Source of the DNA: an uncultured Thermoleophilia bacterium
GTDB taxonomy: Bacteria; Actinomycetota; Thermoleophilia; UBA2241
DNA length: 64,000 nucleotides
Assembly (NCBI GenBank): GCA_963751215.1
Contig: CAVVTV010000024.1
Coordinates: forward strand, 1,052,178 to 1,116,177
Direction of reading: 5' to 3'
The position numbers and the translations under genes were made by a program. The notes beneath the pieces were generated by a model. It was given only the letters and a program-made list of their open reading frames with translations. It was not told the origin of the DNA and did no database searches. Shown here piece after piece: positions 19,262 to 36,304 of this stretch (its first letter is position 1; each line of letters opens with the position of its first letter).

Positions 19262-20440
19262 ATGAGCGAGGCACACGGCGAGCGGGTCTCACTCGCCACG
19301 ATCGCGCGTGAATGGCTGCGCATCGGCGTCACCGGCTTCGGCGGCCCGCCGGCGCATATTGCTCTCCTGAGCAGCCTCGCCGTGAGGCGGCGCGGCTGGC
19401 TTACCGAACGCGAGTTCGAGGAGGGCGTCGCCGCCACCAACCTGCTGCCGGGACCGGCCTCGACGCAGCTCGCGATCTTCATCGCCTGGCGCCTGCGGGG
19501 CGCAGTTGGTGGCATCCTCGCCGGGGTCTGCTTCATCGTCCCCGGCCTCGCCCTCATCCTGGCCCTCGCGACGCTCTTCCTTGCCGCGCACCCGCCGCTC
19601 TGGACCGAAGGAGCCGCTGCAGGAGCCGGTGCCGCCGTGCCGGCCGTCGCCGTGCAGGCGGCCCTGGGCCTGGCGCCGGCGAGCTGGCGGCGGGCGGGCG
19701 CTTCCCGGGCCGCGCAGACGCGCTGGCTGCTCTACCTGCTCGCCGGCGTCGCGGCGTCTGCGGGCCTTGGACCGTACCTGGTCCTCGTGCTGTTCGCCTG
19801 CGGCGCAGTCGAGGTCGCGACCCTGCGCCCGGGCCGCTGTGCTGTGGGCGGACGGACGAGGGTCCTCCTCGCCGTGCCGCTCGCCCTCACCGGCAGCGCC
19901 GTCGGTGGCCTCGCGGCCCTCGTCTGGGTGGCCTTCAAGGTGGGGGCGCTCTCCTACGGCGGCGGCTTTGTGATCATCCCCCTGATGCAGCACGATGCGG
20001 TCAGCACCTACCACTGGATGAGCGCCGCTCAGTTCCTCAACGCCGTCGCCCTGGGCCAGATTACGCCGGGCCCTGTGGTGCAGACGGTCGCGGTGGTCGG
20101 TTACGCCGCTGCCGGGCTCGCCGGCGGCCTGCTCGCGGCGCTCGTCGCCTTCGCCCCATCGTTCCTCTTCGTCATCGTCGGCGGGCCCCGCTTCGGGCGC
20201 CTGCGCACCAGCACCCGGGCGCAAGCCTTCCTGACCGGCGCCGGCGCGGCGGCCATCGGCGCGATCATGGGGGCTGCCATCCCCCTGGCGCTGGCGCTCT
20301 CCCACCTCTGGCAGCTTGGCGTGCTCGCGCTCGCGGCGGCCTGGCTGCTACGACTGCGCCGGGGCGTCGTCCCGGCGCTCCTCGGGGCGGCGCTGCTCGG
20401 CGTCGTCGCGGCACTCTTGGGTGCACCAATTGGCCACTGA
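19262..20440 (+). CDS. chrA: chromate ion transporter ChrA (two CHR domains)
   Basis: ORF 19256..20440. ATG 19262. GVTGFGGPPAHIAL and GALSYGGGFVIIPLM CHR-domain motifs, polytopic. Confidence 0.85.
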   Translation: MSEAHGERVSLATIAREWLRIGVTGFGGPPAHIALLSSLAVRRRGWLTEREFEEGVAATNLLPGPASTQLAIFIAWRLRGAVGGILAGVCFIVPGLALILALATLFLAAHPPLWTEGAAAGAGAAVPAVAVQAALGLAPASWRRAGASRAAQTRWLLYLLAGVAASAGLGPYLVLVLFACGAVEVATLRPGRCAVGGRTRVLLAVPLALTGSAVGGLAALVWVAFKVGALSYGGGFVIIPLMQHDAVSTYHWMSAAQFLNAVALGQITPGPVVQTVAVVGYAAAGLAGGLLAALVAFAPSFLFVIVGGPRFGRLRTSTRAQAFLTGAGAAAIGAIMGAAIPLALALSHLWQLGVLALAAAWLLRLRRGVVPALLGAALLGVVAALLGAPIGH

Positions 20441-20553
20441 GCCTTGGGCAACGGTATGCCGATGCCCCGAGTCGGTGCCCATGGGCAGCGCCCCCAAAGG
20501 CGAAACCGACAGCTACCAAGCAGGAAGTTCTGGTCGGTGGCGGATCGAGCCTC

Positions 20554-21483
20554 TCATTGCTGCTCCCTTTCCTGCATGCGCCGACGGCTTAGGCGCTGCC
20601 GGCAGGCAGCGCTGCAGGTCTTCTGGTCGGTGCGGCAGCGGGGCACAAAGGGCTTGCCGCAGCTCTCGCAGGAGTTCATCTGCCAGATGCCCGAGAGCTG
20701 CTCGGCAAGCATCATGTAGAAGGCGCCGAGCAGCGACTCGACTCTCACTCTGCGGCCGAGTGCCTCGCTTACGTGGGAGGAGGTGTGCTCGCTCAAACGC
20801 CTGTTGATCTCACCATAGAGGTAGTGCTCAAGGGGGGCGATGTAGCGCCCAATGTCGCTCGTTGAGGCGCTCCAGTCCCTTAACTTGTCGTAGGCAACGG
20901 CAGGCGCGGCCTGCGAGATCGTAACGTGGGCGTCCTCATGGGTTCCCGGCCAGCGGTAGACGAGCTTGACGCCACGCAGGCCATCCTGCCAGTGCACGTA
21001 GCGCCTTGCCACGTTCGTATCTTTGCGCTTGCAGATCTGGACTAGCTCGAGCAAGCCGCCCACAGAGCTGATCGCCTGCCCCCAGCCGAACAGGTGCTCG
21101 GCCATATAGACGCCTGCATCTCGTCCATCATCGTCGGCGAGCCAACTCCTGACTGCTCCTTGCGCCCAGCCGAGGGTGCCGTAACGCGAAGCGAAGGCGG
21201 CCAAGACACCGAGGCTCTCCCGGTCGTTGCCGAGCGGCAGGCCGGCGAACTCCACGTGCAGGTTGCGATTCCAGCGCAGAGGCTCGTACACGCGAGCCGC
21301 AAAGTGTGCCCCCACGGGCACCGGCGGCACCAGCCAGGGACCCTGGGGAGCCACTCTCGTCCAAGAGGGCTGCTCCTCTCGGCCTGGTCTGCAGAGCTTG
21401 TACTCGGTGCTCCAGTGGTAGCCATCGTCGGCGACCAGCCAGCGCAGGCGCATGCACGAGTCGTCCATGAGCGACCTTGGCAT
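20554..21483 (-). CDS. hypothetical protein with C-terminal CxxC...C-x3-C zinc ribbon
   Basis: ORF 20554..21513 trimmed to ATG 21483 (MPRSLMDDS) with GGGAGAAGAGG RBS. C-terminus CESCGKPFVPRCRTDQKTCSAACRQRL. The conserved operator module lies 25-55 bp upstream. Confidence 0.5.
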   Translation of the reverse strand: MPRSLMDDSCMRLRWLVADDGYHWSTEYKLCRPGREEQPSWTRVAPQGPWLVPPVPVGAHFAARVYEPLRWNRNLHVEFAGLPLGNDRESLGVLAAFASRYGTLGWAQGAVRSWLADDDGRDAGVYMAEHLFGWGQAISSVGGLLELVQICKRKDTNVARRYVHWQDGLRGVKLVYRWPGTHEDAHVTISQAAPAVAYDKLRDWSASTSDIGRYIAPLEHYLYGEINRRLSEHTSSHVSEALGRRVRVESLLGAFYMMLAEQLSGIWQMNSCESCGKPFVPRCRTDQKTCSAACRQRLSRRRMQEREQQ

Positions 21484-21536
21484 CCTCTTCTCCCGGACAC
21501 GCCCCAGACTCACATGTGAGTGTGCACTCTATCACA
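21472..21536 (-). promoter_or_regulatory. promoter/operator module copy 1: identical 30-mer GACTCACATGTGAGTGTGCACTCTATCACA (CRP-like TGTGA-N6-GCACA plus perfect palindrome CTCACATGTGAG) with conserved RBS/start region
   Basis: 66-bp near-identical repeat of 26692..26757. Contains the ATG and RBS of gene 20554..21483. Confidence 0.6.
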
Positions 21537-21691
21537 TGCACGGTAGGCATGACGGGGACGAGGTGCGGAAGGGAGAAGTGCATACAGACGTGCCGATCCT
21601 GTGCTGCGGCGGACCTCGCGCACCACGATTCCGCTAGCCGACCGTCAGCCGGGCTTCCACATCGCCAGATCAGCCACTCTGTGCCTGCTCG

Positions 21692-22004
21692 TTAGTCCCG
21701 GAGCAACCCGCGGAGCGCGTCTATCTCCAAATCGCGCTCGACCAGCATATGCCTGAGACACGCGTTCTCAGACTCCAGCTCGCGCATGTGCTTTACATCG
21801 GCGGTTGTCATTTGACCGTAGCATCGCTTCCAGCGGTAGAACGTCTGCTCGGAGATGCCATGGATGCGGCAGACCTCGACCGCCGTGGTCACGCCCCCGG
21901 CGGTCGCGGCCAGGATATCGACGATTTGTGCCTCGGTGTGCTTCACTGCAGCCCCCAGATGCGAGCAGTTGGGAACACCAAGTTGCCCCCGGTGAGTGGG
22001 TACA
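21692..22004 (-). mobile_element. IS3-family remnant: putative left inverted repeat (TGTACCCACTCACC...) plus solo orfA (HTH/leucine-zipper InsN-like, 84 aa, GTG start ~21946); orfB absent
   Basis: ORF 21692..22105 C-terminal 84 aa: KHTEAQIVDILAATAGGVTTAVEVCRIHGISEQTFYRWKRCYGQMTTADVKHMRELESENACLRHMLVERDLEIDALRGLL, a typical IS3/IS911 OrfA. No transposase catalytic ORF follows before the operator module. Confidence 0.65.
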
Positions 22005-22164
22005 ATCCCACCCCCTTCCGTATGGCTATCATAGCTCACCAGAGGCCGTCGTGCCCGTTTCAAGCAATGTCCGCACGGCTCGCTGATCGTTCGCCAGCTC
22101 ATCACGGATTCGCACGCCCCACGGTCGCGTCACGGCGACCCGTTGGTTGCAGAGACCGGCCGCC

Positions 22165-22830
22165 ACCCCCTAGTATCGTTCGCCGCGGTAGCCGGCTTCG
22201 GTGGCGCGCTGGAACCAGCGCTCAGCTTCGTCGAGCTCACCCAACTGCTCCAGTAGCAGGCCGAGGTCGAACATCGCATCTGCTTCGCCTGCCTCGGCGG
22301 CCTGCCGATACCACTCTTTGGCCTGCTCGGGCTGGCCCTGTTCCTTCAGCAGGGCGCCGAGGTTGAACATGGCGTGGGCGTCGCCCGCCTCGGCGGCCAG
22401 GCGATACCACTCTTTGGCCTCGCCGATGTCGCCGCGCAGGTAGAGGAGCGCGCCCAGGTTGAACATCGCGCGCACGTCGCCTGCCTCGGCGGCCAGGCGA
22501 TACCAGTGGTCGGCGCCCTCGATGTCGCCGCGCAGGTAGAGGAGCGCGCCCAGGTTGAACATCGCGCGCACGTCGCCTGCCTCGGCGGCCAGGCGATACC
22601 AGTGGTCGGCGCCCTCGATGTCGCCGCGCAGGTACAGCAGGTGGCCGAGGTCGCACCGCGCCTCGGTATCGCCTGCCTCGGCCGCCTGCCGATACCAGCG
22701 CTCAGCGCCCGTGGTGTCGCCCTGCTCTCTGAGCAGCCGGCCGAGGTCGCGCATCGCCTGGGTATCGCCCGCCTCGGCCGCCTCCCCAAGCCTTTCTGCT
22801 TCGTCGGACATGTGGTGCTGCTCCCCTTGT
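22165..22830. repeat. 0.66-kb direct repeat, copy A (about 95% identical to 27143..27808)
   Basis: Contains whole Sel1 gene A plus its start region. Identity breaks about 20 bp upstream of the ATG and at ctagtatcg just past the stop. Confidence 0.8.
22170..22811 (-). CDS. Sel1-like/TPR repeat protein, copy A (213 aa)
   Basis: ORF 22170..22868 trimmed to ATG 22811 (MSDEAERLGE). Repeated 36-aa units EWYRLAAEAGDxxAMFNLGALL. Internal 108-bp tandem units are nearly identical at DNA level. Confidence 0.8.
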   Translation of the reverse strand: MSDEAERLGEAAEAGDTQAMRDLGRLLREQGDTTGAERWYRQAAEAGDTEARCDLGHLLYLRGDIEGADHWYRLAAEAGDVRAMFNLGALLYLRGDIEGADHWYRLAAEAGDVRAMFNLGALLYLRGDIGEAKEWYRLAAEAGDAHAMFNLGALLKEQGQPEQAKEWYRQAAEAGEADAMFDLGLLLEQLGELDEAERWFQRATEAGYRGERY

Positions 22831-23051
22831 GCTCTTCCGGGCACGCCCAGTTCTTGTACGCCGCACACGAATGACGTGCTCAGACGCGATCACGTCGCGA
22901 TCGGCTATCCATTCCCACCCCGCGACTTCTTCATACTGGCAGCTCGAATTGCGGCACGCCGACCGGTGAGGTGTGCGGCCGAACGAGGAATGCGTCTTGA
23001 CCGAGCGTGTCCTCAGAGCCGGCGGTGTGCCTGGCTCCGTCTTGGACCGGG

Positions 23052-23525
23052 CTACGAGCGAAGGCGGTAGAGACTCAGGGTGGAAGGAGCGGCGATCGGC
23101 CAAGACTGCGCAGCTACGACCTGACCGCCGACAGCCACCTTGCTCAGATGCTCGCTGGGCAGCGACATGGCTTCGATCTCATCGAGATTGCCAGCCTTCA
23201 TCTCGCGCGCAATGTTCTGCGCCACGCACTGAACAACGCTGTGCGCGCGATTTGATCCGCGTTCGCCAGCCGGGAAATCGAGAGCCTCCACGACGTCCGG
23301 GTATCTCTTGTAGAGCGCCGTGGCGATCTGAAACGCAGTGAGAAACGGGCGGCCCTGGTGATCGCCCCCAGCCACGCGCACATCCCCAAGAATCGTCAAG
23401 ATCTTGGCGACCAAGTCATGCTCCACCCAGCTATTCACGTGCCACTCCAAACCCAGTACGCGCCCCCGCTTTGGCGCCAAATGGCACCACCAGGTGCACG
23501 GCGCAGGCGCCAGCGTCAACGGCAA
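23052..23525 (-). CDS. hypothetical protein (lower-GC segment)
   Basis: TTG-started track ORF with no family match. GC3 only about 60% versus about 88% elsewhere. Local GC near 52% in places. Preceded upstream by hairpin 23544..23574. Confidence 0.3.
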   Translation of the reverse strand: MPLTLAPAPCTWWCHLAPKRGRVLGLEWHVNSWVEHDLVAKILTILGDVRVAGGDHQGRPFLTAFQIATALYKRYPDVVEALDFPAGERGSNRAHSVVQCVAQNIAREMKAGNLDEIEAMSLPSEHLSKVAVGGQVVAAQSWPIAAPSTLSLYRLRS

Positions 23526-23543
23526 CCATCGTGTGCGGGGAGA

Positions 23544-23574
23544 GGGGCGGGCGGCTCATTGAGCCGCCCGCCCC
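23544..23574 (-). terminator. 14-bp perfect stem hairpin GGGGCGGGCGGCTC-att-GAGCCGCCCGCCCC downstream of the CXXCH-protein gene
   Basis: Read directly, 52 nt after the stop at 23626. Confidence 0.6.
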
Positions 23575-23625
23575 CGCCTCGCCTGCCCCGCTCCGATTGC
23601 GCCGGAGCGCGGGATCAGACGACGC

Positions 23626-24777
23626 TCAGTTGACCTTGAACGACTTCCACAAGGTCGCTGCCGAGCCGAAGAGTGTGGTCTTCGCGACCGACGTCTTCAC
23701 ACGGTAGCTGCCCGTCTTCGTCGGCTTGTAGGTGTAGCTGTAGGCGCCGCTGGTAGCGTTGATGGTGCGCGCCGCCGTCTTCACGTTGACCCACTTCTTG
23801 CCGACCTTGCGCTGGATCGTGACCGTCGCCGTGCCACTGCGCGCCGGCTTCACGGCGCCCTTGACGGTCATCTTCTTGCCGAGTTTCAGTGCCCCGGCCT
23901 TGAGGCCGGTGAGCTTGATGGTTACGCTGCTCTTCTGCAGCGCACTCGTGAACGTCACGGCGAGCGTGTGATTCGCGGTGACGTTATCAAAGGTGTAGTA
24001 GTCGCCGAAGATCGCCTGCACTGCAGCACCATCGGCGAGCAGTGTGCCGATCTTGTAGCCGGCGTCCGGCACGATCAAGCAGGTGACTGTGCCCCCGGAA
24101 GTCACGGTCCAGGGCCCGACCGGGGAGATCTTGCCATGAGCGCCCGCGGTAGCCGTGATCGTGAAGCTCGGGTTGGCGGCAAACGTGGCCGAGATAGTTT
24201 CGTTGGCAGTGACGTTCGTGAACGTGTACGAGCTGACAGCGCCGACAGACGTGCCGTTGACCTTCACGTCGGCGATGGAGTAGCCGGCGTTGGCGGTGAT
24301 GGTGAACGTGACGCTGCCGCCTGACGCCACGCTCTGCGCGGTCGTGGGCGTGATCGATCCGTTCGCACCGGCGGTCGGTGTGACCGTGAAGTTGCCCGTC
24401 CCACCTGTCGACGTAACGTCGGTTTCGCTGATGGGACCTGGGGAGCCGGACACGGAGAAGACCTTGAACGTGTCCCCCGCGGTACCAGTAAACGTGCCAC
24501 CCGAGGTCGTATCGCCGGCGATCCGGGTGGCGCCGTCGAAGGCCGCCCAAGCGGATCCGACCTGTGTGACGCTATACGTCGCAGTGGTACCGTTGTTGCT
24601 TACGAGCGTGACGACGGGGGCCGCGAGGCCGGATCCAGAGTGACACGCGCTGCATATTTGGGTTTCGTCCGGCGTTGCATAGGCACTCGTAGCCAGTACG
24701 GTGAAAAGGGCAGCGACGGCTAGCAACGCCACCGCGAAACTTGCCGATCTCCTCATGTGCCAGGACTCCTTTTTCAT
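23626..24777 (-). CDS. secreted CXXCH (monoheme c-type cytochrome-like) protein with Ig-like/Listeria-Bacteroides-type repeat domains
   Basis: ORF 23626..24861 trimmed to ATG 24777 (GGAGG RBS). Signal peptide MKKESWHMRRSASFAVALLAVAALFTVLATSAYA, then ETQICSACHSG (CXXCH). Repeats TFTNVTANETISATF / YTFDNVTANHTLAVTF. Lys-rich Ig-like C-terminus. Confidence 0.65.
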   Translation of the reverse strand: MKKESWHMRRSASFAVALLAVAALFTVLATSAYATPDETQICSACHSGSGLAAPVVTLVSNNGTTATYSVTQVGSAWAAFDGATRIAGDTTSGGTFTGTAGDTFKVFSVSGSPGPISETDVTSTGGTGNFTVTPTAGANGSITPTTAQSVASGGSVTFTITANAGYSIADVKVNGTSVGAVSSYTFTNVTANETISATFAANPSFTITATAGAHGKISPVGPWTVTSGGTVTCLIVPDAGYKIGTLLADGAAVQAIFGDYYTFDNVTANHTLAVTFTSALQKSSVTIKLTGLKAGALKLGKKMTVKGAVKPARSGTATVTIQRKVGKKWVNVKTAARTINATSGAYSYTYKPTKTGSYRVKTSVAKTTLFGSAATLWKSFKVN

Positions 24778-24818
24778 GGGTGCAGAACCTCCGTCGACTC
24801 GCTCACGATTCCAGAGAC

Positions 24819-26603
24819 TCATTTGACTGCCGGCACATTCTTCGCGGCGTTCATGCCGCAAAGGCGAGCGGCGGTCACGTAGTGGGCCAACGTGTTGTGA
24901 CCCCGGCGATAGCCGACGATATCGCCGGACTCGCCCGCGACGTACAGATGGGGGATCGTCGTCAACTGGTCGATCGACTGCGGCGCGGCATCGCCCTGCT
25001 CGGCCTCGATCACCTGCATCTTGGTGTTGACGCGGAGCCCATTGCGCTGCGTGTGCCGGATCAAGCTCAGCTTCGCACCGTAGAACGGCCCTGTGAGGAT
25101 CTTGCCCTTTGGCGACGGCTTGCCGAAGTCGGCATCCGTGCCGGAGTCGACGAAGCCATTGTAGCGAGTGATGGTGGCCTGCAGATTGGCCGCGTTCACG
25201 CCCATCTTGGCCGCCAGGCCCGCGATCGTGTCGTCGATGGCGAGGCAGGTCGGATCGAGCTGAATCCCACTCTTGGGATCGGGGTTCTGCATCGTGCTAA
25301 TGGGCCACCCCAGAGTGGCAGCGGTGGTCGAGTCCGCGATCATCCACACGTTGCGCGGCTGCGGCAGTGCCAGGTAGGACGTGGTCCACGTCATCTCGGG
25401 GTTCTCGGAGTAGGAGCCTCGTCCCGCAGGGATCGCGTCGAAGCGCGTGGACTCGTTGACGTAACGTTGGCCGTTGTTCGCCACACAGATGGTGCTCTGG
25501 AACGTGGCGGCACTCTGGGTCAGACCCTTGCCGGCGGCATAGTTCGTGTTCGTCGTCCAGTCGATCGGGTCGTGTCCCCAGCCCCAGTACGAGCGGCCAC
25601 CGAAGAAGGTATAGAGGTAGGAAGTGAACGACATATCGGCAAGTCCAGCCCCGATGTCGGCACACGCCCTTTGACCATCGCCGGCGCTGTCGATGTAGAG
25701 CGTCCCGTCGATCGGCGTCCCGCCATCTCCGTAGCAGTCAGGCCCGACTGTCCGCGGGTCCCACTGCTGCATCATGGTCTGGTTGTCGGTCCACGTACCG
25801 GCGGCGACAACGACACCCTTGCGGGCTCTGATGTTCATGAGCCCCTTAGGCCCACGCGCCTGAATGCCGACCACGACGCCGTTCCTGTCCCGGTACAGCT
25901 TCAGCATCCGCGTGTTCAGAAGGATGGGCGTGCCCTGCTTCTGCACCTTCTTCCACATGACCCAGCTGAAGGAGATACCGGTGTTCGGCGTGCCCGACCC
26001 GCCGGGATAGACACCCGGGTTCTGCAGGGCGGTAATGCCACGCCAGATCGGCGGACGCAAGACACCTGCGGACAGCGGCGCATACTTGATGCCGAGATCC
26101 TGGAACCACTTGACTGTGTCCGCACCATTGGCCACCAGCGTGCGCACGATCTCCGGCTGTGCACGGTACTGGCTGGTGTACATCTCGTCCTCGAACCACT
26201 GCTCGTCGTTGTCAACGACGCCGGCAGCCTGCTGCACGACGTTGTTGCCACCCATCGTGAAGCTGCCACCAGCGGTCATGTACAGCCCGCCGACGTGGTC
26301 AGCCTTCTCGACGATGAGCGCGCTGGCGCCGAGGTTCTTGGCCTCAATCGCGGCGGCGAGCCCGCAACCGGTGCCGACCACGACCACGTCGACGGTCCGC
26401 TGCCACTTGCTGGGCAGCTTTGACGACTGTGCCGACTCGGCCAGCGCGGCAGGCACTCCGAGGAAGCCTCGCGAGCCTACGCCAACAACCGCTGCTCCCA
26501 CGGCAGCCCCAGCGAGGAACTTCCGCCGGGTAAAGCCCTTCTTCACGCCATCGTCGTCAGCGACTTCCATCTGACGTTCGTCCTTCTCGTCAATGTCATC
26601 CAT
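24819..26603 (-). CDS. Tat-exported FAD-dependent oxidoreductase (fumarate reductase/succinate dehydrogenase flavoprotein-like, KstD/flavocytochrome flavin-domain-like)
   Basis: ATG 26603. Twin-arginine signal TRRKFLAGAAVGAAVVGVG. Dinucleotide-binding VDVVVVGTGCGLAAAIEA. C-terminus HLYVAGESGD typical of the FRD/SDH flavoprotein superfamily. 41-bp gap to the CXXCH gene. Confidence 0.85.
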   Translation of the reverse strand: MDDIDEKDERQMEVADDDGVKKGFTRRKFLAGAAVGAAVVGVGSRGFLGVPAALAESAQSSKLPSKWQRTVDVVVVGTGCGLAAAIEAKNLGASALIVEKADHVGGLYMTAGGSFTMGGNNVVQQAAGVVDNDEQWFEDEMYTSQYRAQPEIVRTLVANGADTVKWFQDLGIKYAPLSAGVLRPPIWRGITALQNPGVYPGGSGTPNTGISFSWVMWKKVQKQGTPILLNTRMLKLYRDRNGVVVGIQARGPKGLMNIRARKGVVVAAGTWTDNQTMMQQWDPRTVGPDCYGDGGTPIDGTLYIDSAGDGQRACADIGAGLADMSFTSYLYTFFGGRSYWGWGHDPIDWTTNTNYAAGKGLTQSAATFQSTICVANNGQRYVNESTRFDAIPAGRGSYSENPEMTWTTSYLALPQPRNVWMIADSTTAATLGWPISTMQNPDPKSGIQLDPTCLAIDDTIAGLAAKMGVNAANLQATITRYNGFVDSGTDADFGKPSPKGKILTGPFYGAKLSLIRHTQRNGLRVNTKMQVIEAEQGDAAPQSIDQLTTIPHLYVAGESGDIVGYRRGHNTLAHYVTAARLCGMNAAKNVPAVK

Positions 26604-26691
26604 CGAACACGACTCCCCTCATCCATTGGTCTGACAGCTGCAGACGCGCCACGAACGAATAACCTCCTCGAACGGACTTGCCTAGTCGATC

Positions 26692-26757
26692 GACCTTGGC
26701 ATCCTCTCCCTCCACGGAGACATCCCGGACTCACATGTGAGTGTGCACTCTATCACA
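26692..26757 (-). promoter_or_regulatory. promoter/operator module copy 2 (same 30-mer palindrome); carries a decayed 6-codon start MPRSID* of a paralog of gene 20554..21483
   Basis: Near-identical to 21472..21536. About 125 bp upstream of the FAD-oxidoreductase ATG. Confidence 0.6.
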
Positions 26758-26928
26758 ACCACCCCCACAGCCGCACACAAGAAGACATCTGAATTCACGA
26801 TTCTTCACATCGGACACCGCGCGCTGGGGCGTCCGCAGGCCTAGCGTCGTGGGTACGCCTCTTTCGCTGCAGTCCTGTCGCGGCCACCTACCGACTGCCA
26901 AGACCGGCCGTCAGGCGGGGTCGTTCGC

Positions 26929-27147
26929 CGCGCTAACCGCTTCGGTGGCGTGCTGTAGGGCGGCGGCGGCGGCGAGGGCGCTCTTCGCCGCGCAGCCGGC
27001 GTAGTTGGCGCAGGAGAGCAGGGTGCCGTCGACGAGGCGCACGCTGCCGGCCGCGACGAGCTCGGCGACGGCCAGCTGCACGCGCGTGATCTGCGGTGTC
27101 AGGCGACGCAGGCGGCGGTTGAACTGCGACTGCCCGGGCGGGAGCTT
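26929..27147 (-). pseudogene. orphan C-terminal gene fragment (about 72 aa, no start), unknown origin, possibly mobile-element derived
   Basis: Minus-frame ...SQFNRRLRRLTPQITRVQLAVAELVAAGSVRLVDGTLLSCANYAGCAAKSALAAAAALQHATEAVSAANDPA* with about 93% GC3, so it is a coding frame. It abuts the stop of Sel1 copy B with no upstream start. Confidence 0.4.
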
Positions 27148-27808
27148 CTAGTATCGCTCGCCGCGGTAGCCGGCTTCGGTGGCGCGCTGGAACCAGCGCT
27201 CAGCTTCGTCGAGCTCACCCAACTGCTCCAGTAGCAGGCCGAGGTCGAACATCGCATCTGCTTCGCCTGCCTCGGCGGCCTGCCGATACCACTCTTTGGC
27301 CTGCTCGGGCTGGCCCTGTTCCTTCAGCAGGGCGCCGAGGTTGAACATGGCGTGGGCGTCGCCCGCCTCGGCGGCCAGGCGATACCACTCTTTGGCCTCG
27401 CCGATGTCGCCGCGCAGGTAGAGGAGCGCGCCCAGGTTGAACATCGCGCGCACGTCGCCTGCCTCGGCGGCCAGGCGATACCAGTGGTCGGCGCCTTCGA
27501 TGTCGCCACGCAGGTAGAGGAGCGCGCCCAGGTTGAACATCGCGCGCACGTCGCCTGCCTCGGCGGCCAGGCGATACCAGTGGTCGGCCTCGTCGAGCTC
27601 ACCCTGCTCCTTGAGCAGCTGGCCGAGGTCGCACCGCGCCTCGGTATCGCCTGCCTCGGCCGCCTGCCGATACCAGCGCTCAGCGCCCGTGGTGTCGCCC
27701 TGCTCTCTGAGCAGCCGGCCGAGGTCGCGCATCGCCTGGGTATCGCCCGCCTCGGCCGCCTCCCCAAGCCTTTCTGCTTCGTCGGTCATGTGGTGCTGCT
27801 CCCTTTTT
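27143..27808. repeat. 0.66-kb direct repeat, copy B
   Basis: See copy A. Same orientation, about 5 kb apart. Confidence 0.8.
27148..27789 (-). CDS. Sel1-like/TPR repeat protein, copy B (213 aa)
   Basis: ORF 27148..28149 trimmed to ATG 27789 (MTDEAERLGE). About 93% identical to copy A, differing mainly in one repeat (QLLKEQGELDEADHWY versus HLLYLRGDIEGADHWY). Confidence 0.8.
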   Translation of the reverse strand: MTDEAERLGEAAEAGDTQAMRDLGRLLREQGDTTGAERWYRQAAEAGDTEARCDLGQLLKEQGELDEADHWYRLAAEAGDVRAMFNLGALLYLRGDIEGADHWYRLAAEAGDVRAMFNLGALLYLRGDIGEAKEWYRLAAEAGDAHAMFNLGALLKEQGQPEQAKEWYRQAAEAGEADAMFDLGLLLEQLGELDEAERWFQRATEAGYRGERY

Positions 27809-28252
27809 CGTAGGCACCATTGGTGCTGTCGTGTGCCGGCCGCCGTCATCCTGGTCCGGTGAGTCAATGTACGCTTGAGACTAACGTCGGGCAACCGGTC
27901 CTGGACGACCCTGTGCTCGCGGCCGGACGGAAGCGACGACCTCGAGCAGAGATCAGCCGAGCGCGGGCATGCCGCCCCAACCCACAGGCCCGCGGGCCCA
28001 CTCGCGCGGAGCCCCGGGAACTCGTTGTCACGGTCCACGAGGGCTTGCCACGCTTTCCGGGAAGGCCATGCGTCGGCCTCGAAGCGAGCCTGGCTCGCTG
28101 CGCGCCGGGTCCTCCGGCGGAAGAACGCAGCTCCCGCTATGCCACGCATGCCAGGCTGACCGCGAGCGCTCCTGGGTTGACGGTCTCCTCCGCATCAACC
28201 ACGATGGCGGTCAGGTCTTCCGGACTGACTGCTATGCAACGGAGGTAAGAGG

Positions 28253-28495
28253 ATGTTCAGCGGCGCGCTTCAACCCATGCACGTGCTAATCGTGGTCGTC
28301 ATCGTGCTGCTACTCTTCGGCGCCAAGCGGCTGCCCGAGCTGGGCCGCTCGATGGGAACTGGCATTCGCGAGTTCAAGAAGGGTGTCTCCGAATTACACG
28401 CAGACGTATCCGACGAGCAGCCGGGAGGCGCCGCTGCCGGGCCAACTGCCCCCGTCAAGGTAGAGAGCGTTGCCTCTCAGAGCGAGGCTGAGTAG
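28253..28495 (+). CDS. tatA: twin-arginine translocase subunit TatA/E
   Basis: LLLFGAKRLPELGRSMGTGIREFKKG with N-terminal TM. GGAGGTAAGAGG RBS. Confidence 0.85.
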   Translation: MFSGALQPMHVLIVVVIVLLLFGAKRLPELGRSMGTGIREFKKGVSELHADVSDEQPGGAAAGPTAPVKVESVASQSEAE

Positions 28496-28865
28496 GAAGG
28501 CGACCCCGCGCCGCCGCTTCAGGGGTAAGACGAATCACGCCACAACGGCGTGCCTGAGATCGCTCCCACGATCTGCGCCTGCGCCGCGAGATGAAGACCT
28601 GGGAGGCCGCCTCAGATCCCGGCGGGGGATCGTCGTGCAGCACCGTGGCGCGTTCTGCGGCGCTCTTCGGCGAGCTCGGTGCACACATAGCGGCGTAGGC
28701 TGGCGACGCTTGATCGCCGACACGTGGCACACCCCCTCGAGAAGCGGGTGCGGGATGCCCGAGGTGAACTGCTCCTCCGAGTGAGAGGGCCCCGGCTGGG
28801 GCGGTACCGCTAGCAGCGGGCGCGCCGCTGAACGGGCTGCTGCCTAGCGTAGCGGTCGGGCCTGC

Positions 28866-29282
28866 TCAAGGGGCAGGCGAGGCGAACGCGCAGCTCTCGT
28901 ACGGCGACATGCCCGAGATCAGCTCCTCCAGGCAAGCGTGCACCTCGTCGAGCTCGTCGTGCTCGCGCCGCAGTGCGACGCGCTCATCGCGCAGCTCCAG
29001 GGCCAGGTAGCTGTCGATGTCGATCAGTGCCGCGATCTCGTCGGCGGGGAACTCCGCGAGCCAGATCTCATGGAAGATGCGACCATCCCCGGTTGAGGCC
29101 AAGTTTCGAGAGACGTACAGGGAGGGCGTCCTGAGATAGGCGAGCGTCGCCCTGCGGCTGATAAGGCCGTCCGGCAGGTGAGGGTACCGACGCCCGAGGG
29201 CCAGGTTGATCTCGTCGAGCCTCGCGATGGTCACGTTGTCTCGCTTCCTTTCCAAGAGCCAGTTGTGCCTCTTAGGGTGCAC
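28866..29282 (-). CDS. hypothetical protein (about 138 aa; start uncertain, GTG at 29282 suggested)
   Basis: ORF 28866..29483. GC3 rises from about 50% upstream to about 85% downstream of about 29290, indicating the real coding part. No family match. Confidence 0.35.
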   Translation of the reverse strand: MHPKRHNWLLERKRDNVTIARLDEINLALGRRYPHLPDGLISRRATLAYLRTPSLYVSRNLASTGDGRIFHEIWLAEFPADEIAALIDIDSYLALELRDERVALRREHDELDEVHACLEELISGMSPYESCAFASPAP

Positions 29283-29545
29283 AGACCCGGCATCGCATCT
29301 GAGATTTCTATTACAGTGTTCCCCATGTGCCGGCCCGAGCGAGCACGGGAGCGCCGCCCGGAATCGCGGCGACGTGGTCGTCCGGGTCGATCGACGCGGC
29401 GGGCTGATCCACGAGTAACAGCGGACTGCGGCGTGCATCGCGGATAGGCGCATCCTCACCGTAATCGGCAACTTAGGGAACAATCAGAGATGCGGCGCTC
29501 GCAGGCAGGGGCGCCTGGTGGCGATGGAGGCTGAGGAGGCATCTC

Positions 29546-30172
29546 ATGAGCCTGTTAGTTGCGGTCTTCAATCAGAGGTCGGAACGGTCGGGCAAGACCG
29601 TCAGCTATGAAGACGCCCAGCGCCAGTTCATCCTCCAAGACCACGGGCCCATCACCGCCCAGGCCCTTTTGGGCTACGACGCGCAGGGCCAGCTCGACTG
29701 GGCAGACGAGGGTCTGCGCGAGTGGGCCCAGAAGGCGGCACAGGCCGCGGCAGCGCCGGCACGCGGAGCTACCGAACGGCCGTCGCCGACGGTCGAGGCG
29801 GCCGCTGCGCCGTCTCAGGCCATGGCCGGCGCGGAGCCAAAGCGGCAGGCAGGTCGCGGAGTACAAGGTGCTGCGCTTACGGAGTCCTTCGACTCCGGCC
29901 CGGTGCCAGCCGCCGAGGACTCCAGGCCAGGCGCTGAGAGGTCGCGGACCACGAGCGCTTCGAACCCGGGCATCGGGGTAGCCGGGTTCATCTGCTCGCT
30001 GGTCGGTTTTGGCGTCCCCCTCCTCGGTGTTCTTGGGCTCATCCTCTCGATCGCCGGCCGGCGAGAGGCCGAGCGACTCGGCATGGCGAAGGGGCTCTCC
30101 GCCACCGGCATCGTCATCGGCGTCATCAGCACGCTGTTCGGCCTTCTGGTTCTGGTCGCGCTTCTTGGCTAG
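29546..30172 (+). CDS. DUF4190-like membrane protein (Ala/Gln-rich N-terminus, C-terminal two-TM domain)
   Basis: ATG with GAGGAGG RBS. C-terminus GIGVAGFICSLVGFGVPLLGVLGLILSIAGRREA. Confidence 0.55.
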   Translation: MSLLVAVFNQRSERSGKTVSYEDAQRQFILQDHGPITAQALLGYDAQGQLDWADEGLREWAQKAAQAAAAPARGATERPSPTVEAAAAPSQAMAGAEPKRQAGRGVQGAALTESFDSGPVPAAEDSRPGAERSRTTSASNPGIGVAGFICSLVGFGVPLLGVLGLILSIAGRREAERLGMAKGLSATGIVIGVISTLFGLLVLVALLG

Positions 30173-30531
30173 CGCCGGCCTCACGCACTGAAGGTGAGGC
30201 TCCCGGCGCAACAGCAACGCCATCCGCGCTGGCCTGCCGAACCCGACCGCGTGGGCTACGGCGGCTGCACGCGCGCAGTGCGGACCGCTACTTGAGTTCG
30301 CTGCGGCACTACTCGCGGCAGACATCACGGCAGGTGGCCGACGCCAGGGTGCCGCGCGCTCCGATGAGGACGACCACGACCGTGAGGACGATCGCCGAGA
30401 CCGTAAGGCTGACGGTTGTGAGCCTGAATCTCACTTAGTCGAAGGTCCGAGGACGATCGGACGGATCTTGGCGACCGTATTCCTGCACGCTACTTGTGAC
30501 CTGTCGCCGCGCGGCCGGGAACAATGGCATC

Positions 30532-31005
30532 ATGACTCTCTGGAAGCTCCCTCCACCCGCCAAGGTCTATGAAGCGTTCAGCGCCATCGGCGACGACCGC
30601 GTCCGGCTAGAGGAGCCGGGACGCGCCACGGTGCGGTCCTCAGGCGGCGAGAAGGCCTACACGGTCGAGTGGACGGACGATTTGGCGGCCGTCACGTCGA
30701 ACGACAACGCCTCGTACTGGCAGGGCTACCTTGGCTACCCGATCGTGGCTGTCCTCATCGCGGCGGGCAAGGTGCGGGTGGACGAGACCGCGCCCAGAGT
30801 GCTCGCGGGGATCGACTGGCATGCCCTAAACGAGCGCTTCAAGCGCGACTACGATGCCGCGGTCGGCCATGTGCTCGACGGACTCGCTCAGCGCGGAGAG
30901 GATCCCGAGCGCGTCAGGCGCGAGGTCGACAGCGTGATGGGCCAGCTCGCCGAGCTCAAGCTGGAGCGTGCGGGCCGAGGCAGGCGGCCGCCTTCCCCAA
31001 GCTGA
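30532..31005 (+). CDS. hypothetical protein
   Basis: ORF 30496..31005 trimmed to the second ATG (MTLWKLPPP). No family match. Confidence 0.45.
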   Translation: MTLWKLPPPAKVYEAFSAIGDDRVRLEEPGRATVRSSGGEKAYTVEWTDDLAAVTSNDNASYWQGYLGYPIVAVLIAAGKVRVDETAPRVLAGIDWHALNERFKRDYDAAVGHVLDGLAQRGEDPERVRREVDSVMGQLAELKLERAGRGRRPPSPS

Positions 31006-31065
31006 GGCTCACGCGCCATGGTGACGGTCGCGGGCTGAGTAGTCGCAGGCAGCGCTCCGCGCGGT

Positions 31066-31097
31066 GTATGCTAGAAACGTCAGATCGATGCGGCTTC
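31066..31097 (+). promoter_or_regulatory. conserved motif copy 1: TATGCT-agA-AACGTCAGATCGATGCGGCTTC (-10-like hexamer plus conserved 23-mer)
   Basis: 27/32 identical to 50944..50974. About 70-100 nt upstream of the MFS transporter ATG at 31164. Positions +/-2. Confidence 0.45.
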
Positions 31098-31163
31098 CCC
31101 TTGACCGGCCTTCCACTCCGACGTGTTGGCTAGCGGCTGGGCCGCGCCCACAAGGAGCAAGCC

Positions 31164-32948
31164 ATGACTGATGTCGCCGTTGCGACCGCAGCAGAGCCCG
31201 CAGCGACCGTCGACCCCTACAAGGGCAAGTGGTCGACGCTATCCAATACCACCCTCGGCATGCTGATGGCCTCGATCGACGCCTCCATCGTGCTCATCGC
31301 CCTGCCCGACATCTTCCGCGGCATCCACCTCAACCCGCTCCTGCCGGGCAACACCAGCTACTTCTTGTGGATGATGATGGGCTACATGCTGGTAACAGCG
31401 GTGCTGGTGGTGAGCTTCGGCCGCCTCGGCGATATCTTCGGTCGGGTGCGCATGTACAACATGGGCTTCGCCCTCTTCACCGTCTTCTCGATCATGCTCT
31501 CGGTGACCTGGATGCACGGGCGTGACGCCGTCCTGTTCATGATCGTCATGCGCATCTTCCAGGGCGTCGGCGGGGCCCTCATCATGGCCAATTCGATGGC
31601 CATCCTGACCGACGCCTTCCCCCCCAAGCAGCGTGGCCTGGCCCTCGGGACCAACATGATGGCGGCCATCGCAGGCTCGTTCATCGGCCTTGTGCTGGGC
31701 GGCATCCTGGGGCCCATCGACTGGCGCCTCGTGTTCCTGGTCTCGGTGCCGGTGGGCATCGTCGGCACCATCTGGGGCGTGATCAACCTCAAAGAGAAGG
31801 GCGTACGCACCCCGGCCAGGATCGACTGGCTGGGCAACGCCACCTTCGCTCTCGGCCTGGTGGCGCTGCTCACCGGCATCGTCTACGGCATCGAGCCCTA
31901 CGGTCGCCACACCATGGGCTGGAGCAGCCCCTGGGTCCTGGCGGCCCTGATCGGCGGCGTGCTGATGCTCTGCCTGTTCGTGTGGATCGAGACCAGAGTT
32001 GCCTCGCCGATGTTCCACATCCCGCTGTTTCGCATCCGTTCGTTCGCGGCCGGCAACGTGGCCAGCCTCATGGCCGCCCTCGGGCGCGGCGGGCTCATGT
32101 TCGTGCTCATCATCTGGCTGCAGGGCATCTGGCTGCCCGAGCACGGCTACAGCTTCGCTCGGACCCCGCTCTGGGCCGGCATCTTCATGCTGCCCCTGAC
32201 CGGTGGGTTCCTCCTCGCCGGGCCGCTGTCGGGCTACCTCTCGGACCACTTCGGAGCGCGGCCCTTCGCCACCGGCGGGATGCTGGCGGCGGCCGCGAGC
32301 TTCGCGCTCCTGGAGCTCCTGCCAATCGACTTCTCCTACGTCTGGTTCGGGCTCCTGCTGCTGGCCAACGGCTTGGCCATGGGCCTGTTCGCCTCGCCCA
32401 ACCGGGCCGCCGTCATGAACTCGCTGCCCCCCGACCAGCGCGGCGCCGGCTCGGGCATGGGCGCCACCACCATGAACGCCGCCATGGTGCTCTCCATCGG
32501 CATCTTCTTCACGCTGATCATCGTCGGCCTTGCCGCCTCGCTGCCGGGCGCCCTCTACCAGGGCCTCACCGCCCACGGGGTGCCCGCTGCCGCCGCCCAG
32601 AGGGTGGCCGACCTGCCGCCCACCGCCTCGGTCTTCGCCGCCTTCCTTGGCTACAACCCCGTGCAGAACCTGCTCGGACCGAGCGGCGTGCTCGCCCACA
32701 TGCCCCCTGCTCAGGCCGCCTTCCTGACCGGCCGCTCGTTCTTCCCGAGCCTCATCGCGGGGCCATTCAGCCACGGCCTGCACGAGGCCCTCGACTTCGC
32801 CATCGCCGCTTGCCTGCTGGCGGCCGGCGCTTCCGCCCTGATGGGCAAGCAGTACTTTCACGAGGCCCCGACCGAGACCACGCCCGCCGACACCGGGCCG
32901 GTGTTGCCTCGTCTTGATGCCGGCAATCTCTTTGACGATGGTCTGTAG
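31164..32948 (+). CDS. MFS transporter, DHA2 (EmrB/QacA-like, 14-TMS) family
   Basis: 594 aa. GRLGDIFGRVRMY motif, 14 hydrophobic segments. Confidence 0.85.
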   Translation: MTDVAVATAAEPAATVDPYKGKWSTLSNTTLGMLMASIDASIVLIALPDIFRGIHLNPLLPGNTSYFLWMMMGYMLVTAVLVVSFGRLGDIFGRVRMYNMGFALFTVFSIMLSVTWMHGRDAVLFMIVMRIFQGVGGALIMANSMAILTDAFPPKQRGLALGTNMMAAIAGSFIGLVLGGILGPIDWRLVFLVSVPVGIVGTIWGVINLKEKGVRTPARIDWLGNATFALGLVALLTGIVYGIEPYGRHTMGWSSPWVLAALIGGVLMLCLFVWIETRVASPMFHIPLFRIRSFAAGNVASLMAALGRGGLMFVLIIWLQGIWLPEHGYSFARTPLWAGIFMLPLTGGFLLAGPLSGYLSDHFGARPFATGGMLAAAASFALLELLPIDFSYVWFGLLLLANGLAMGLFASPNRAAVMNSLPPDQRGAGSGMGATTMNAAMVLSIGIFFTLIIVGLAASLPGALYQGLTAHGVPAAAAQRVADLPPTASVFAAFLGYNPVQNLLGPSGVLAHMPPAQAAFLTGRSFFPSLIAGPFSHGLHEALDFAIAACLLAAGASALMGKQYFHEAPTETTPADTGPVLPRLDAGNLFDDGL

Positions 32949-33110
32949 AGACCGTGCCTGCGCGGCGCACGACGCCATCGCCGTCGCGCTGGCCCGCTCG
33001 GCTCCTGTGGAGTGCACAAACTCGATCACGCCGCCAGTACAGGGCCGCGGCGGCGACCTGCAGATCCAGTTCCCGGCGTCTGACTGACACGCAGATGGGA
33101 AGACGCACCA

Positions 33111-33152
33111 GAGAGGGGGCCGGCGGAGCGTTTGCTCCGCCGGCCCCCTCTC
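33111..33152. terminator. perfect 19-bp stem hairpin GAGAGGGGGCCGGCGGAGC-gttt-GCTCCGCCGGCCCCCTCTC between convergent genes
   Basis: Read directly. Confidence 0.7.
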
Positions 33153-33318
33153 GCGTGCCGCCCGGCTGACCGTCGCGACGGCGTCTGCGATTGGCCGCTT
33201 ACCGGCTCCTGTAGTGGTTGGGCGGCGACGCTCATCGCGAGGCTGGTGTTCGCTGGAAAGTAGGTCGCGTCGTCAGCCTCACACGGCGGGTCTGCCGCGA
33301 GTCACCCGAGCACAAGGG

Positions 33319-34062
33319 TCACGGCACGCTCTCGTAGACGCCCGCCGCCGCCAGCCTGCCGGCCTCGACCGTCACCGTCGTCGGCGTCATCCCGACACCG
33401 CTGGAGTCGCCCAGCCTGAAGGTGTAGTCGCCTGGCGCCAGCTTGAGAGAGAAGAAGCCGGCCCAATCGGAGCGCACCTTCGTCAGTGGTGGACTGCTGG
33501 CAGGCGCAGCGCCGCCCTGCCAGACCACGACTTGGACATGCGTGAGCGGCCTGGGGCCGCCGGGGAAGGGGCCGCCCTCCATTAAGGCGTGACCCCAGAC
33601 GCCTTCACCGGCGGACGGCGGCGGGACGTAGGAGTGGAGCTGCCCGAGGGGCGCCAGGTGGAGGCCGCGGGCACGGGTGAAGCCGTGCGCCAGATAGATG
33701 TGACCGTCGACCTCCAGGACCAGGTAGAGCCGGCTCGCTTTGGTGCCCGGCGCGTCGGGCGGCCTGAAGTGACCGCGCAGCACGACCACGAAGACCCTGC
33801 CCGAGCCGAAGAGGGAGAGGTAGCTCGTGGCACCGCCCGCGAGGCTGGCGGCGCGCGCCGGAGTCGTCAGAGTCCAGCGGAGGGCGCCGGGCTGAGGGTC
33901 GCCGGCAGCGAGCGCTTGCCAGAGGGCCTCGCGCTGCACCCAGGCGGGCGGTCGCACGACGACAGGGGCCGCGGCACGGGGCTCGGAGGCGGCGCTTGCG
34001 GAGCCGCCGGCAGCGAGTGCCAGCAGGGCGAGTAGCGCAATCACAAGCAGAGCGCGGCGCAT
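33319..34062 (-). CDS. secreted hypothetical protein
   Basis: ORF 33319..34071 trimmed to ATG (MRRALLVIALLALLALAAGGSASA signal peptide). GGAGG RBS. Confidence 0.6.
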   Translation of the reverse strand: MRRALLVIALLALLALAAGGSASAASEPRAAAPVVVRPPAWVQREALWQALAAGDPQPGALRWTLTTPARAASLAGGATSYLSLFGSGRVFVVVLRGHFRPPDAPGTKASRLYLVLEVDGHIYLAHGFTRARGLHLAPLGQLHSYVPPPSAGEGVWGHALMEGGPFPGGPRPLTHVQVVVWQGGAAPASSPPLTKVRSDWAGFFSLKLAPGDYTFRLGDSSGVGMTPTTVTVEAGRLAAAGVYESVP

Positions 34063-34129
34063 GAGGCTCACCTCCGTCTAGACCACCGTTCGCTCACGGT
34101 GAGACGCACGGGTCGGGCGGAGAGTTCGT

Positions 34130-36220: not shown

Positions 36221-36304
36221 CTCAAAGTCCTTTCGCACCATGGCATCCGGCCGGACATAGACACACTAACGCTGACACCGGTTAGACGGAAGTTTGGCCG
36301 CAAA

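Follow-up and report, generated by a model that had tools for sequence, protein, structure and literature searches.

The locus

The window, a 64,000-nt stretch of DNA from an uncultured bacterium to which all positions below refer, contains two near-identical genes for a small tetratricopeptide repeat (TPR)/Sel1-like protein, TPR_A and TPR_B, which lie in direct orientation on either side of an operon for a predicted exported flavoprotein. A sequence-only reading had described the region as a mosaic island of debris bracketed by direct repeats. We compared it with contigs of other assemblies (loci L001 and L082-L089) and conclude that the finding is real and is in part to be reinterpreted, as an instance of a known process, the homogenisation of duplicated genes, together with an undescribed and testable gene association. 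The features of the locus, in order of position, are as follows.

20554..21483, minus strand: h319, protein of a conserved hypothetical family marked by CxxC...C...C at the C-terminus, behind the putative copied promoter module
21472..21537, minus strand: P/O_A, secondary copy of the putative promoter/operator module, fused in frame to h319, with the codons MPRS from a short upstream open reading frame (uORF)
21692..21946, minus strand: insertion sequence (IS) remnant, IS3-family orfA, 84 codons, within the open reading frame (ORF) 21692-22105 (HTH_Tnp_1, 5.6e-14; NCBIfam IS3 model, positions 5-79 of 369)
22170..22811, minus strand: TPR_A, second 213-aa copy, 240 nt downstream of h157, with a derived 31-bp patch at 22611-22641
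23052..23525, minus strand: h157, hypothetical ORF specific to the lineage, with a called length of 128 aa in L001 and L082 (ratio of nonsynonymous to synonymous substitution rates, dN/dS, 0.42)
23626..24789, minus strand: c411, Sec-signal protein with CxxCH and InlB-B-repeat Ig-like domains (Pfam, orthologue comparison)
24819..26603, minus strand: predicted FAD-dependent reductase exported by twin-arginine translocation (Tat), 594 aa, flavocytochrome c/FrdA-like, with the motif TRRKFLAG (FAD_binding_2, PF00890, 2.2e-33)
26682..26758, minus strand: P/O_B, native putative promoter/operator module of the flavoprotein, with TGTGATAGAGT (extended -10-like), the palindrome ACTCACATGTGAGT, a ribosome-binding site and the 6-codon uORF MPRSID*
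26909..27147, minus strand: startless fragment, weakly matching the N-terminus of an IS982-family transposase (pseudogene), beginning directly at the TPR_B stop codon
27148..27789, minus strand: TPR_B, 213-aa cytoplasmic TPR/Sel1-like protein of 6.5 units of 32 aa (Pfam TPR_8 81 bits, Sel1 63.5 bits)
28253..28495, plus strand: TatA, divergent from TPR_B (TatA_B_E, 4.9e-18; TIGR01411)

The repeated segment is a single gene

A repeat search recovered a single family of long direct repeats, whose members span about 22156-22830 and 27134-27817. In an ungapped comparison at the coordinates of the earlier reading, 22165-22830 and 27143-27808 share 643 of 666 positions (96.5%), so that the claim of two direct copies of about 95% identity holds, and 14 of the 23 mismatches cluster in one 31-bp patch (22611-22641). 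Read on the minus strand, the homologous tract extends from nt -13 before the ATG to the stop codon (22170-22824 and 27148-27802) and comprises exactly one 213-aa coding sequence (CDS) plus 13 nt that include a GGAG ribosome-binding site. Homology ceases abruptly at nt -14 and past the stop codon, beyond which identity is at background level and the flanking sequences of the two copies are unrelated on either side. Each copy contains, as had been claimed, a whole 213-aa Sel1-repeat gene, whose ORF matches TPR_2, TPR_8 and Sel1 above the gathering thresholds.

Two independent assemblies, reached through the flavoprotein sequence, support this arrangement. L082 is a 27.7-kb contig from another sample that is colinear with 20482-36299 at 96-97% identity and carries two TPR genes and two promoter modules, the IS3 orfA and IS982 remnants, the operon and orthologous flanks; the comparison with related genomes that the earlier reading had proposed thus returns the same two-copy layout in L082, and the layout common to the window and L082 indicates that the duplication is real and older than the split of the two strains. 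L082 differs by an IS5-family insertion beside h319 and by a 2-bp loss ('TA') that removes the TPR_B stop codon and extends the protein to 234 aa; the contig's many frameshifts suggest an error-prone metagenome assembly from long reads. The short-read contig L001, of 3949 bp and 100% identical to 22778-26726, crosses from h157 into TPR_A and carries the variants specific to the A copy. It ends inside TPR_A at one side and in the middle of the palindrome module P/O_B at the other, break points expected of an assembler if the sequences there occur twice.

The alignment with L082 yielded some further observations. Over 1.25 kb (29500-30750, a DUF4190 gene and the sequence downstream) the two strains show zero substitutions, with nearby 250-bp bins diverging by up to about 8%, which suggests a recent inter-strain recombination tract or a consensus artefact; TatA (28253-28495) is likewise 100% identical. 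The IS5-family sequence (L082 16154-17181, at window position ~20463-20592) is a transposase fragment of about 0.9 kb (NF033580, 1.9e-29) between h319 and ChrA, and the final 130 bp of L082, which are 100% identical to the window, repeat 111 bp that are present before this insertion, which could reflect strain mixing or a contig-end artefact.

Concerted evolution of the two TPR genes

The comparison of two-copy loci covers the window and L082. In the alignment of the four TPR copies, nine CDS sites (nt 30, 129, 152, 154, 221, 234, 317, 330 and 471) have the same base in A and B within each genome and differ between the strains, and no CDS site unites the A copies against the B copies. Beyond the homology boundary, the 26 variable positions of the flank (-39 to -14) group strictly by orthology. 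Within the window A and B differ at 18 CDS positions, only 4 of which lie outside the patch, and within L082 at 10; between the strains, the A copies differ at 32 positions and the B copies at 14. Both formal marks of concerted evolution are found in these two genomes, namely paralogues that are more alike than orthologues in spite of orthologous flanks, and sharp ends of homology.

The same process appears to act inside the gene. The site pairs 221/317 and 234/330 are spaced 96 nt apart, the length of one repeat unit, and carry the identical substitution in adjacent units of both copies, and the patch of the window's TPR_A, which is unique among the four copies, reproduces the sequence of units 3 and 4. 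The pattern in the four copies is thus the mark of recurrent gene conversion that acts between the two TPR genes and also between units of the same gene. What is visible at this locus is accordingly a non-reciprocal exchange by gene conversion, not the deletion or amplification predicted earlier. The promoter modules retain their A/B differences in both strains and are therefore not converting.

The closest parallel is found in the tufA and tufB genes of Salmonella and E. coli, paralogues kept near-identical by RecA-dependent gene conversion that halts at the gene ends (PMC5485169); concerted evolution in prokaryotes has also been surveyed more widely (PMC6053082). In both cases a pair of coding sequences is near-identical, homology stops at the ends of the gene, and the flanks are unrelated. 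The tuf genes are 1185 nt long with 12 differences. They lie in inverted orientation 762 kb apart (PMC5485169), whereas the copies in the window are direct repeats 5 kb apart, so that a crossover between them would delete the operon. The window gene is, moreover, itself a tandem 96-bp array with conversion between its units, and it encodes a putative accessory TPR protein and is not a highly expressed core gene.

The promoter module and h319

Twenty-eight nucleotides are identical at 21508-21535 and 26729-26756, where 0 matches are expected by chance, and within them lies the perfect 14-bp palindrome ACTCACATGTGAGT; the operator module that had been noticed before each copy is thus present. 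Altogether the modules are alike over some 70-80 nt, in two blocks, TGTGATAGAGTGCACACTCACATGTGAGTC and then AGAGGATGCCAAGGTCG, the latter consisting of a ribosome-binding site, the ATG and three codons. In L084 the TPR stop codon is followed by about 45 nt, the same module with a 20-bp palindrome, a uORF starting ATGCCAACGTCGATCGA, and the flavoprotein gene, and L083 retains part of the module, a TGTGA-N12-TCACA core, upstream of its flavoprotein. Because the module precedes the flavoprotein in L084, and partly in L083, it is native to the flavoprotein operon.

The N-termini of h319 homologues are different and lack the initial MPRS; in the nearest of them (65% identity) the alignment starts at TVDDS..RLRWLV, and the window protein begins MPRSL-MDDS..RLRWLV. 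With the module native to the flavoprotein and the N-termini of other h319 proteins different, the copied module appears to have replaced the promoter and first codons of h319. We infer from the sequence that the module is a promoter of the extended -10 type; its palindrome overlaps the likely transcription start and would be a fitting site for a dimeric repressor. The analysis identified no regulator for the palindrome. The operator sequence TAGAGT-N4-ACTCACATGTGAGT had 0 matches in the JGI metagenome contigs scanned, and Rfam contained no family matching 20400-29600. A riboswitch in the flavoprotein leader was considered and rejected, as folding is no better than that of shuffled sequence (z = 0.03).

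The h319 family itself is small, with proteins of about 307-316 aa, and has no Pfam domain; its members share C.sCG..FVP..R.DQKTCS.ACRKRLSR, a zinc-ribbon-like pattern, and a weak PHROG HNH match (5.7e-5) is confined to this C-terminal motif. For h319, h157, c411 and h205, no relevant match came from PADLOC or PHROGs.

A conserved neighbourhood around the flavoprotein

The flavoprotein is predicted to be a Tat-exported reductase of FrdA/flavocytochrome-c-like type from its twin-arginine signal and FAD_binding_2 match; the motif TRRKFLAG is kept in its orthologues, and TIGR01813 scores 171 bits, under the cut-off of 285. Behind its signal peptide, c411 has a conserved CxxCH motif, with CxxxCH in its place in one lineage. 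A TPR orthologue adjoins the flavoprotein in each of the four further lineages compared, with identities for flavoprotein and TPR protein, respectively, of 79% and 71% (L084), 73% and 48% (L085), 69% and 62% (L083) and 67% and 50% (L086-L088); gene orientation varies and proximity is constant. The TPR orthologues share the 32-aa period, an MTD(D/E) start and an AG.R.ERY end. In L083, L084 and L086-L089 the gene immediately downstream of the flavoprotein is a c411 homologue, L085 has only a c411 fragment, upstream of the flavoprotein, and TatA is adjacent or nearby in several relatives (adjacent in L086-L089). Selection on TPR_B relative to its L082 copy is purifying (dN/dS = 0.10), as for the flavoprotein (0.13). 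By synteny, the TPR gene, the promoter module and the genes for the flavoprotein, the CxxCH protein and TatA form a conserved neighbourhood of which the TPR gene is a member, not debris. This neighbourhood is so far undescribed.

L085 (ENA ERZ25039502 contig_119616) contains in addition a TatA-TatC-TatA/B cluster, a LuxR-type response regulator and several FAD_binding_2 fragments, and may represent either a larger reductase cluster or a frameshift-ridden assembly.

Outside these lineages the association was not recovered. Neither a TPR gene nor a c411 homologue accompanies two flavoprotein homologues that are about 60% identical, and none of 80 metagenome loci with Sel1-like repeats (SLR), found by a TPR-profile search (at most 54% identity), has a flavoprotein, c411 or TatA gene within 5 kb. 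The more distant TPR matches P0002 and P0003 lie in unrelated surroundings. Synteny anchored on ChrA found no gene of the region at any of 80 loci, the best genome relatives, which include Acidimicrobiales and Dormibacterota metagenome-assembled genomes, being 58-71% identical. Exact database look-ups of both TPR proteins gave no match, and a word-indexed protein search returned TPR relatives of at most 61% local identity (45% for the top match) and missed the true orthologues; since orthologues of 48-98% identity exist on contigs, that search cannot show that the family is rare.

Gordonibacter and Desulfitobacterium encode homologues of the flavoprotein with 52-57% identity. Eggerthellaceae and Desulfitobacterium have pairs of a Tat-exported flavin reductase and a cytochrome, for example Cgr2/Cgr1. 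The window operon resembles such pairs in that a twin-arginine FAD_binding_2 reductase is followed by a secreted or membrane partner with a haem motif, and differs from them in that the partner has a single CxxCH together with Ig-like B-repeats and that a TPR gene and TatA are linked. The host in our case is an uncultured bacterium (67% GC over the window).

The TPR protein

Both copies score above the Pfam gathering cut-offs, with 74.9-77.8 bits for TPR_2 (cut-off 27), 74-81 bits for TPR_8 (25.7) and 63.5-64.7 bits for Sel1 (PF08238; 30.7). Internally the gene repeats every 96 bp (32 aa), as seen in the output of the repeat finder, in Tandem Repeats Finder and in the protein, and likewise in all orthologues. 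The near-identical 108-bp internal units described earlier were not recovered, as the period is shorter and near-identity is limited to units 3 and 4 (95-96%), other pairs of units being 57-77% identical. Unit number, predicted to vary, is 6.5 in all four copies of the window and L082 and differs only in the more distant L083 orthologue, which at 181 aa has exactly one 32-aa unit fewer.

In the AlphaFold2 model (pLDDT 97.1) the protein is predicted to form 13 helices of 13 aa with 3-residue turns, and Foldseek aligns this model to structures of consensus TPR (CTPR) and SLR proteins with TM scores of 0.73-0.84 (0.79-0.84 for SLR), its best matches being Sel1-like and consensus TPR solenoids. 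The 32-aa period departs from the canonical TPR period of 34 residues. Sel1-like repeats are about 36-44 residues long (the Pfam Sel1 model has a length of 36) with a longer inter-helix loop, and the 32-aa units with 3-residue turns depart from these as well. By profile and predicted fold the protein is a member of the TPR/SLR superfamily, with an unusual 32-residue period. Compared with the solenoids c5321 of E. coli (4bwr), LceB of Legionella (8sxq), HcpC of H. pylori (1ouv) and CTPR, it is alike in its predicted superhelix of helical hairpins and its Pfam matches and differs in its period and in lacking a signal peptide and the cysteine pairs of Hcp proteins; it consists of repeats only.

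Insertion sequence remnants and base composition

The fragment next to TPR_B that had been described as startless exists (26909-27147). Against NCBIfam NF033520 it gives E = 0.013 in the window, with 15-22 bits in the window and L082 against a cut-off of 130; the longer L082 fragment, whose frame is broken, reaches E = 8.8e-5 over positions 2-86 of 243 after frame correction. The window fragment has lost 137 bp that are kept in L082, between CTCCCG..CG microhomologies (window 27131-27147, L082 9311-9460). It is probably an N-terminal piece of an IS982-family transposase, on matches that score under the curated cut-off, and a tblastn search with it against plasmids gave no match. Near TPR_A, a solo IS3 orfA with a putative inverted repeat had been proposed. 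The orfA is borne out by its HTH_Tnp_1 and IS3 model matches, is conserved in L082 and has no orfB ORF; the inverted repeat is unconvincing, the best pair nearby being 16 nt long with 75% complementarity.

The gene of roughly 52-60% GC that the bracketed segment was said to contain is absent: its genes have 62.4% (h157), 62.5-62.9% (c411) and 63.8% GC (flavoprotein) against a window mean of 67.4%. Their GC content at third codon positions (GC3) is 0.75-0.86 and matches that of their neighbours, so that the dip in GC reflects amino-acid composition and not foreign codon usage. Searches of the region found no tRNA, integrase, plasmid or phage genes and no phage or defence matches. Neither an island nor a composite transposon fits these data, since GC3 is native, the IS remnants belong to different families, and the region is present in L082. 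By none of the criteria tried is the region a mobile island, and the description as a mosaic of debris gives way to a neighbourhood that is conserved in other lineages, has native codon composition, and keeps the same layout in a strain about 3.5% diverged.

Origin of the arrangement

We consider it probable that duplication of the 5' part of an ancestral unit, decay of insertion sequences, gene conversion and an accessory role of the TPR protein together explain the locus. The ancestral unit, as in L084, would have comprised the TPR gene, the palindromic promoter/operator with its short uORF, the Tat flavoprotein and the CxxCH secreted protein. Its 5' part, from 13 nt before the TPR start codon to uORF codon 4-5, would have been duplicated, the second copy coming to lie downstream of the operon, where its promoter and first codons would have replaced the 5' end of h319. 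The simplest route would be a tandem duplication of the whole unit and then loss of the second flavoprotein-c411-h157 block into h319, by which both junctions would be accounted for in two steps; we infer this route from the map. IS982-family and IS3-family elements would later have inserted between each TPR stop codon and its module and decayed. Non-reciprocal recombination of RecA type would repeatedly homogenise the TPR coding sequences, acting also between the 96-bp units, while the short promoter copies, cut off from the TPR genes by unrelated IS DNA, would evolve independently.

That one TPR gene was merely placed twice by the assembler deserves mention, given that 0.66-kb repeats with internal 96-bp repeats break short-read assemblies and L001 does end inside them. 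We give this almost no credence, as the copies have 23 differences and distinct unique flanks on both sides, L082 was assembled independently from another sample with the same layout and orthologous flanks, L001 carries the h157-TPR_A junction with A-specific variants, and the source contig is 1.17 Mb long. A very recent duplication without gene conversion would explain why the copies are 99.4% identical outside the patch. It is nevertheless very improbable, because L082 shares the junctions, the IS remnants and the promoter copies in their diverged state, so that the duplication is older than the separation of the strains, and the four-way comparison, with nine lineage-specific substitutions shared by paralogues and no CDS site that groups orthologues, contradicts it.

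The main alternative route is a Campbell-type event, in which a circle with the TPR gene, P/O, flavoprotein, c411 and h157 entered a resident TPR-P/O-h319 locus by a single crossover. This would yield exactly the observed map and its direct repeats in one step, the IS remnants and the IS5 insertion of L082 attest to mobile-element traffic here, and the bracketed block is slightly lower in GC. On the other side, GC3 is native, there is no integrase, tRNA, plasmid or phage gene, and a resident P/O-h319 fusion would need an earlier event, as the module is native to the flavoprotein and other h319 N-termini differ; we therefore regard the circle as a doubtful source. The reading of the region as a mobile or mosaic island, with the TPR repeats as recombination ends that switch the operon by deletion or amplification, draws on the fact that 0.66-kb direct repeats of 96.5-99% identity are adequate substrates for RecA. 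Yet the operon is retained between two TPR copies in the window and L082, in agreement with L001, selection on the flavoprotein is purifying, and no deletion junction or amplification is found among the assembled copies of the locus (window, L082 and L001); we consider such a switch very unlikely. Reciprocal recombination that deletes or amplifies the operon is, as such, a reasonable prediction.

Several points weigh against the explanation that combines duplication, IS decay, conversion and an accessory role. Tandem duplication is only one possible route, and integration of a circle gives the same map. The explanation does not account for the presence of one IS family behind the stop codon of TPR_A and another at the equivalent position behind that of TPR_B. 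With the two-copy layout present in only two genomes, the dating and the number of conversion events are rough, and polishing with mis-mapped reads in L082 could inflate the similarity of its copies. A consensus promoter scan found no sigma-70 site at the module. For the TPR protein, neither experiment nor literature backs any function, and the known families of Tat chaperones (TorD/DmsD/NarJ, NapD) are not known to be TPR proteins.

A possible role for the TPR protein

The least supported step is the function of the TPR protein. We hypothesise from synteny, that is, the conserved linkage to the flavoprotein, c411 and TatA, and from purifying selection that it is a cytoplasmic protein-binding accessory factor of the Tat flavoprotein module. 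As an alpha-solenoid of 6.5 units it might, for example, hold or mature the Tat substrate. Like the class II type III secretion chaperones LcrH/SycD, the apocytochrome chaperones NrfG and CcmI and the Tat redox-enzyme maturation proteins TorD/DmsD, the protein is small, predicted to be all-helical, and encoded beside an exported client, and the likeness is one of analogy only, NrfG and CcmI working outside the cytoplasm. Membership in these families is unsupported: the similarity is at the generic TPR level (TIGR02552 matches at 1e-7, far under its cut-off), and no TorD, DmsD or NarJ family was among the Pfam or NCBIfam matches. A literature search found no link between the TPR protein and Tat flavoproteins.

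It is a speculative possibility, one that we think more likely wrong than right, that proteins with the 32-residue period form a new family of dedicated cytoplasmic factors, acting as signal-peptide-binding or maturation chaperones or as partner-switching regulators for an undescribed module of flavoprotein, monohaem Ig-repeat protein and TatA. If so, conversion would maintain two copies of which one is under its own promoter and the other under the palindrome-controlled promoter of the operon.

None of these findings overturns current understanding. What the locus adds is concerted evolution at two levels at once, gene against gene and unit against unit within each copy, in homogenised copies that are direct repeats and so potentially operon-deleting as well, together with the apparent copying of a module of promoter and start codon onto an unrelated gene. 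Most useful, in our view, is the conserved association of a small TPR/SLR-like protein with a clade of Tat-exported flavin reductases of uncultured bacteria; the protein is thereby a concrete candidate for an accessory factor of these poorly understood extracytoplasmic reductases.

Other repeats in the window

Two further repeat-bearing features lie elsewhere in the window. At 34130-36241 on the minus strand, a 703-aa BNR/PSII_BNR (Ycf48-like) repeat protein contains seven 44-nt internal DNA repeats and adjoins a GH5/DUF5722 protein. A 709-nt inverted repeat (7662-8370 and 57665-58373, 49 kb apart, 80% complementarity) probably represents paralogous genes.

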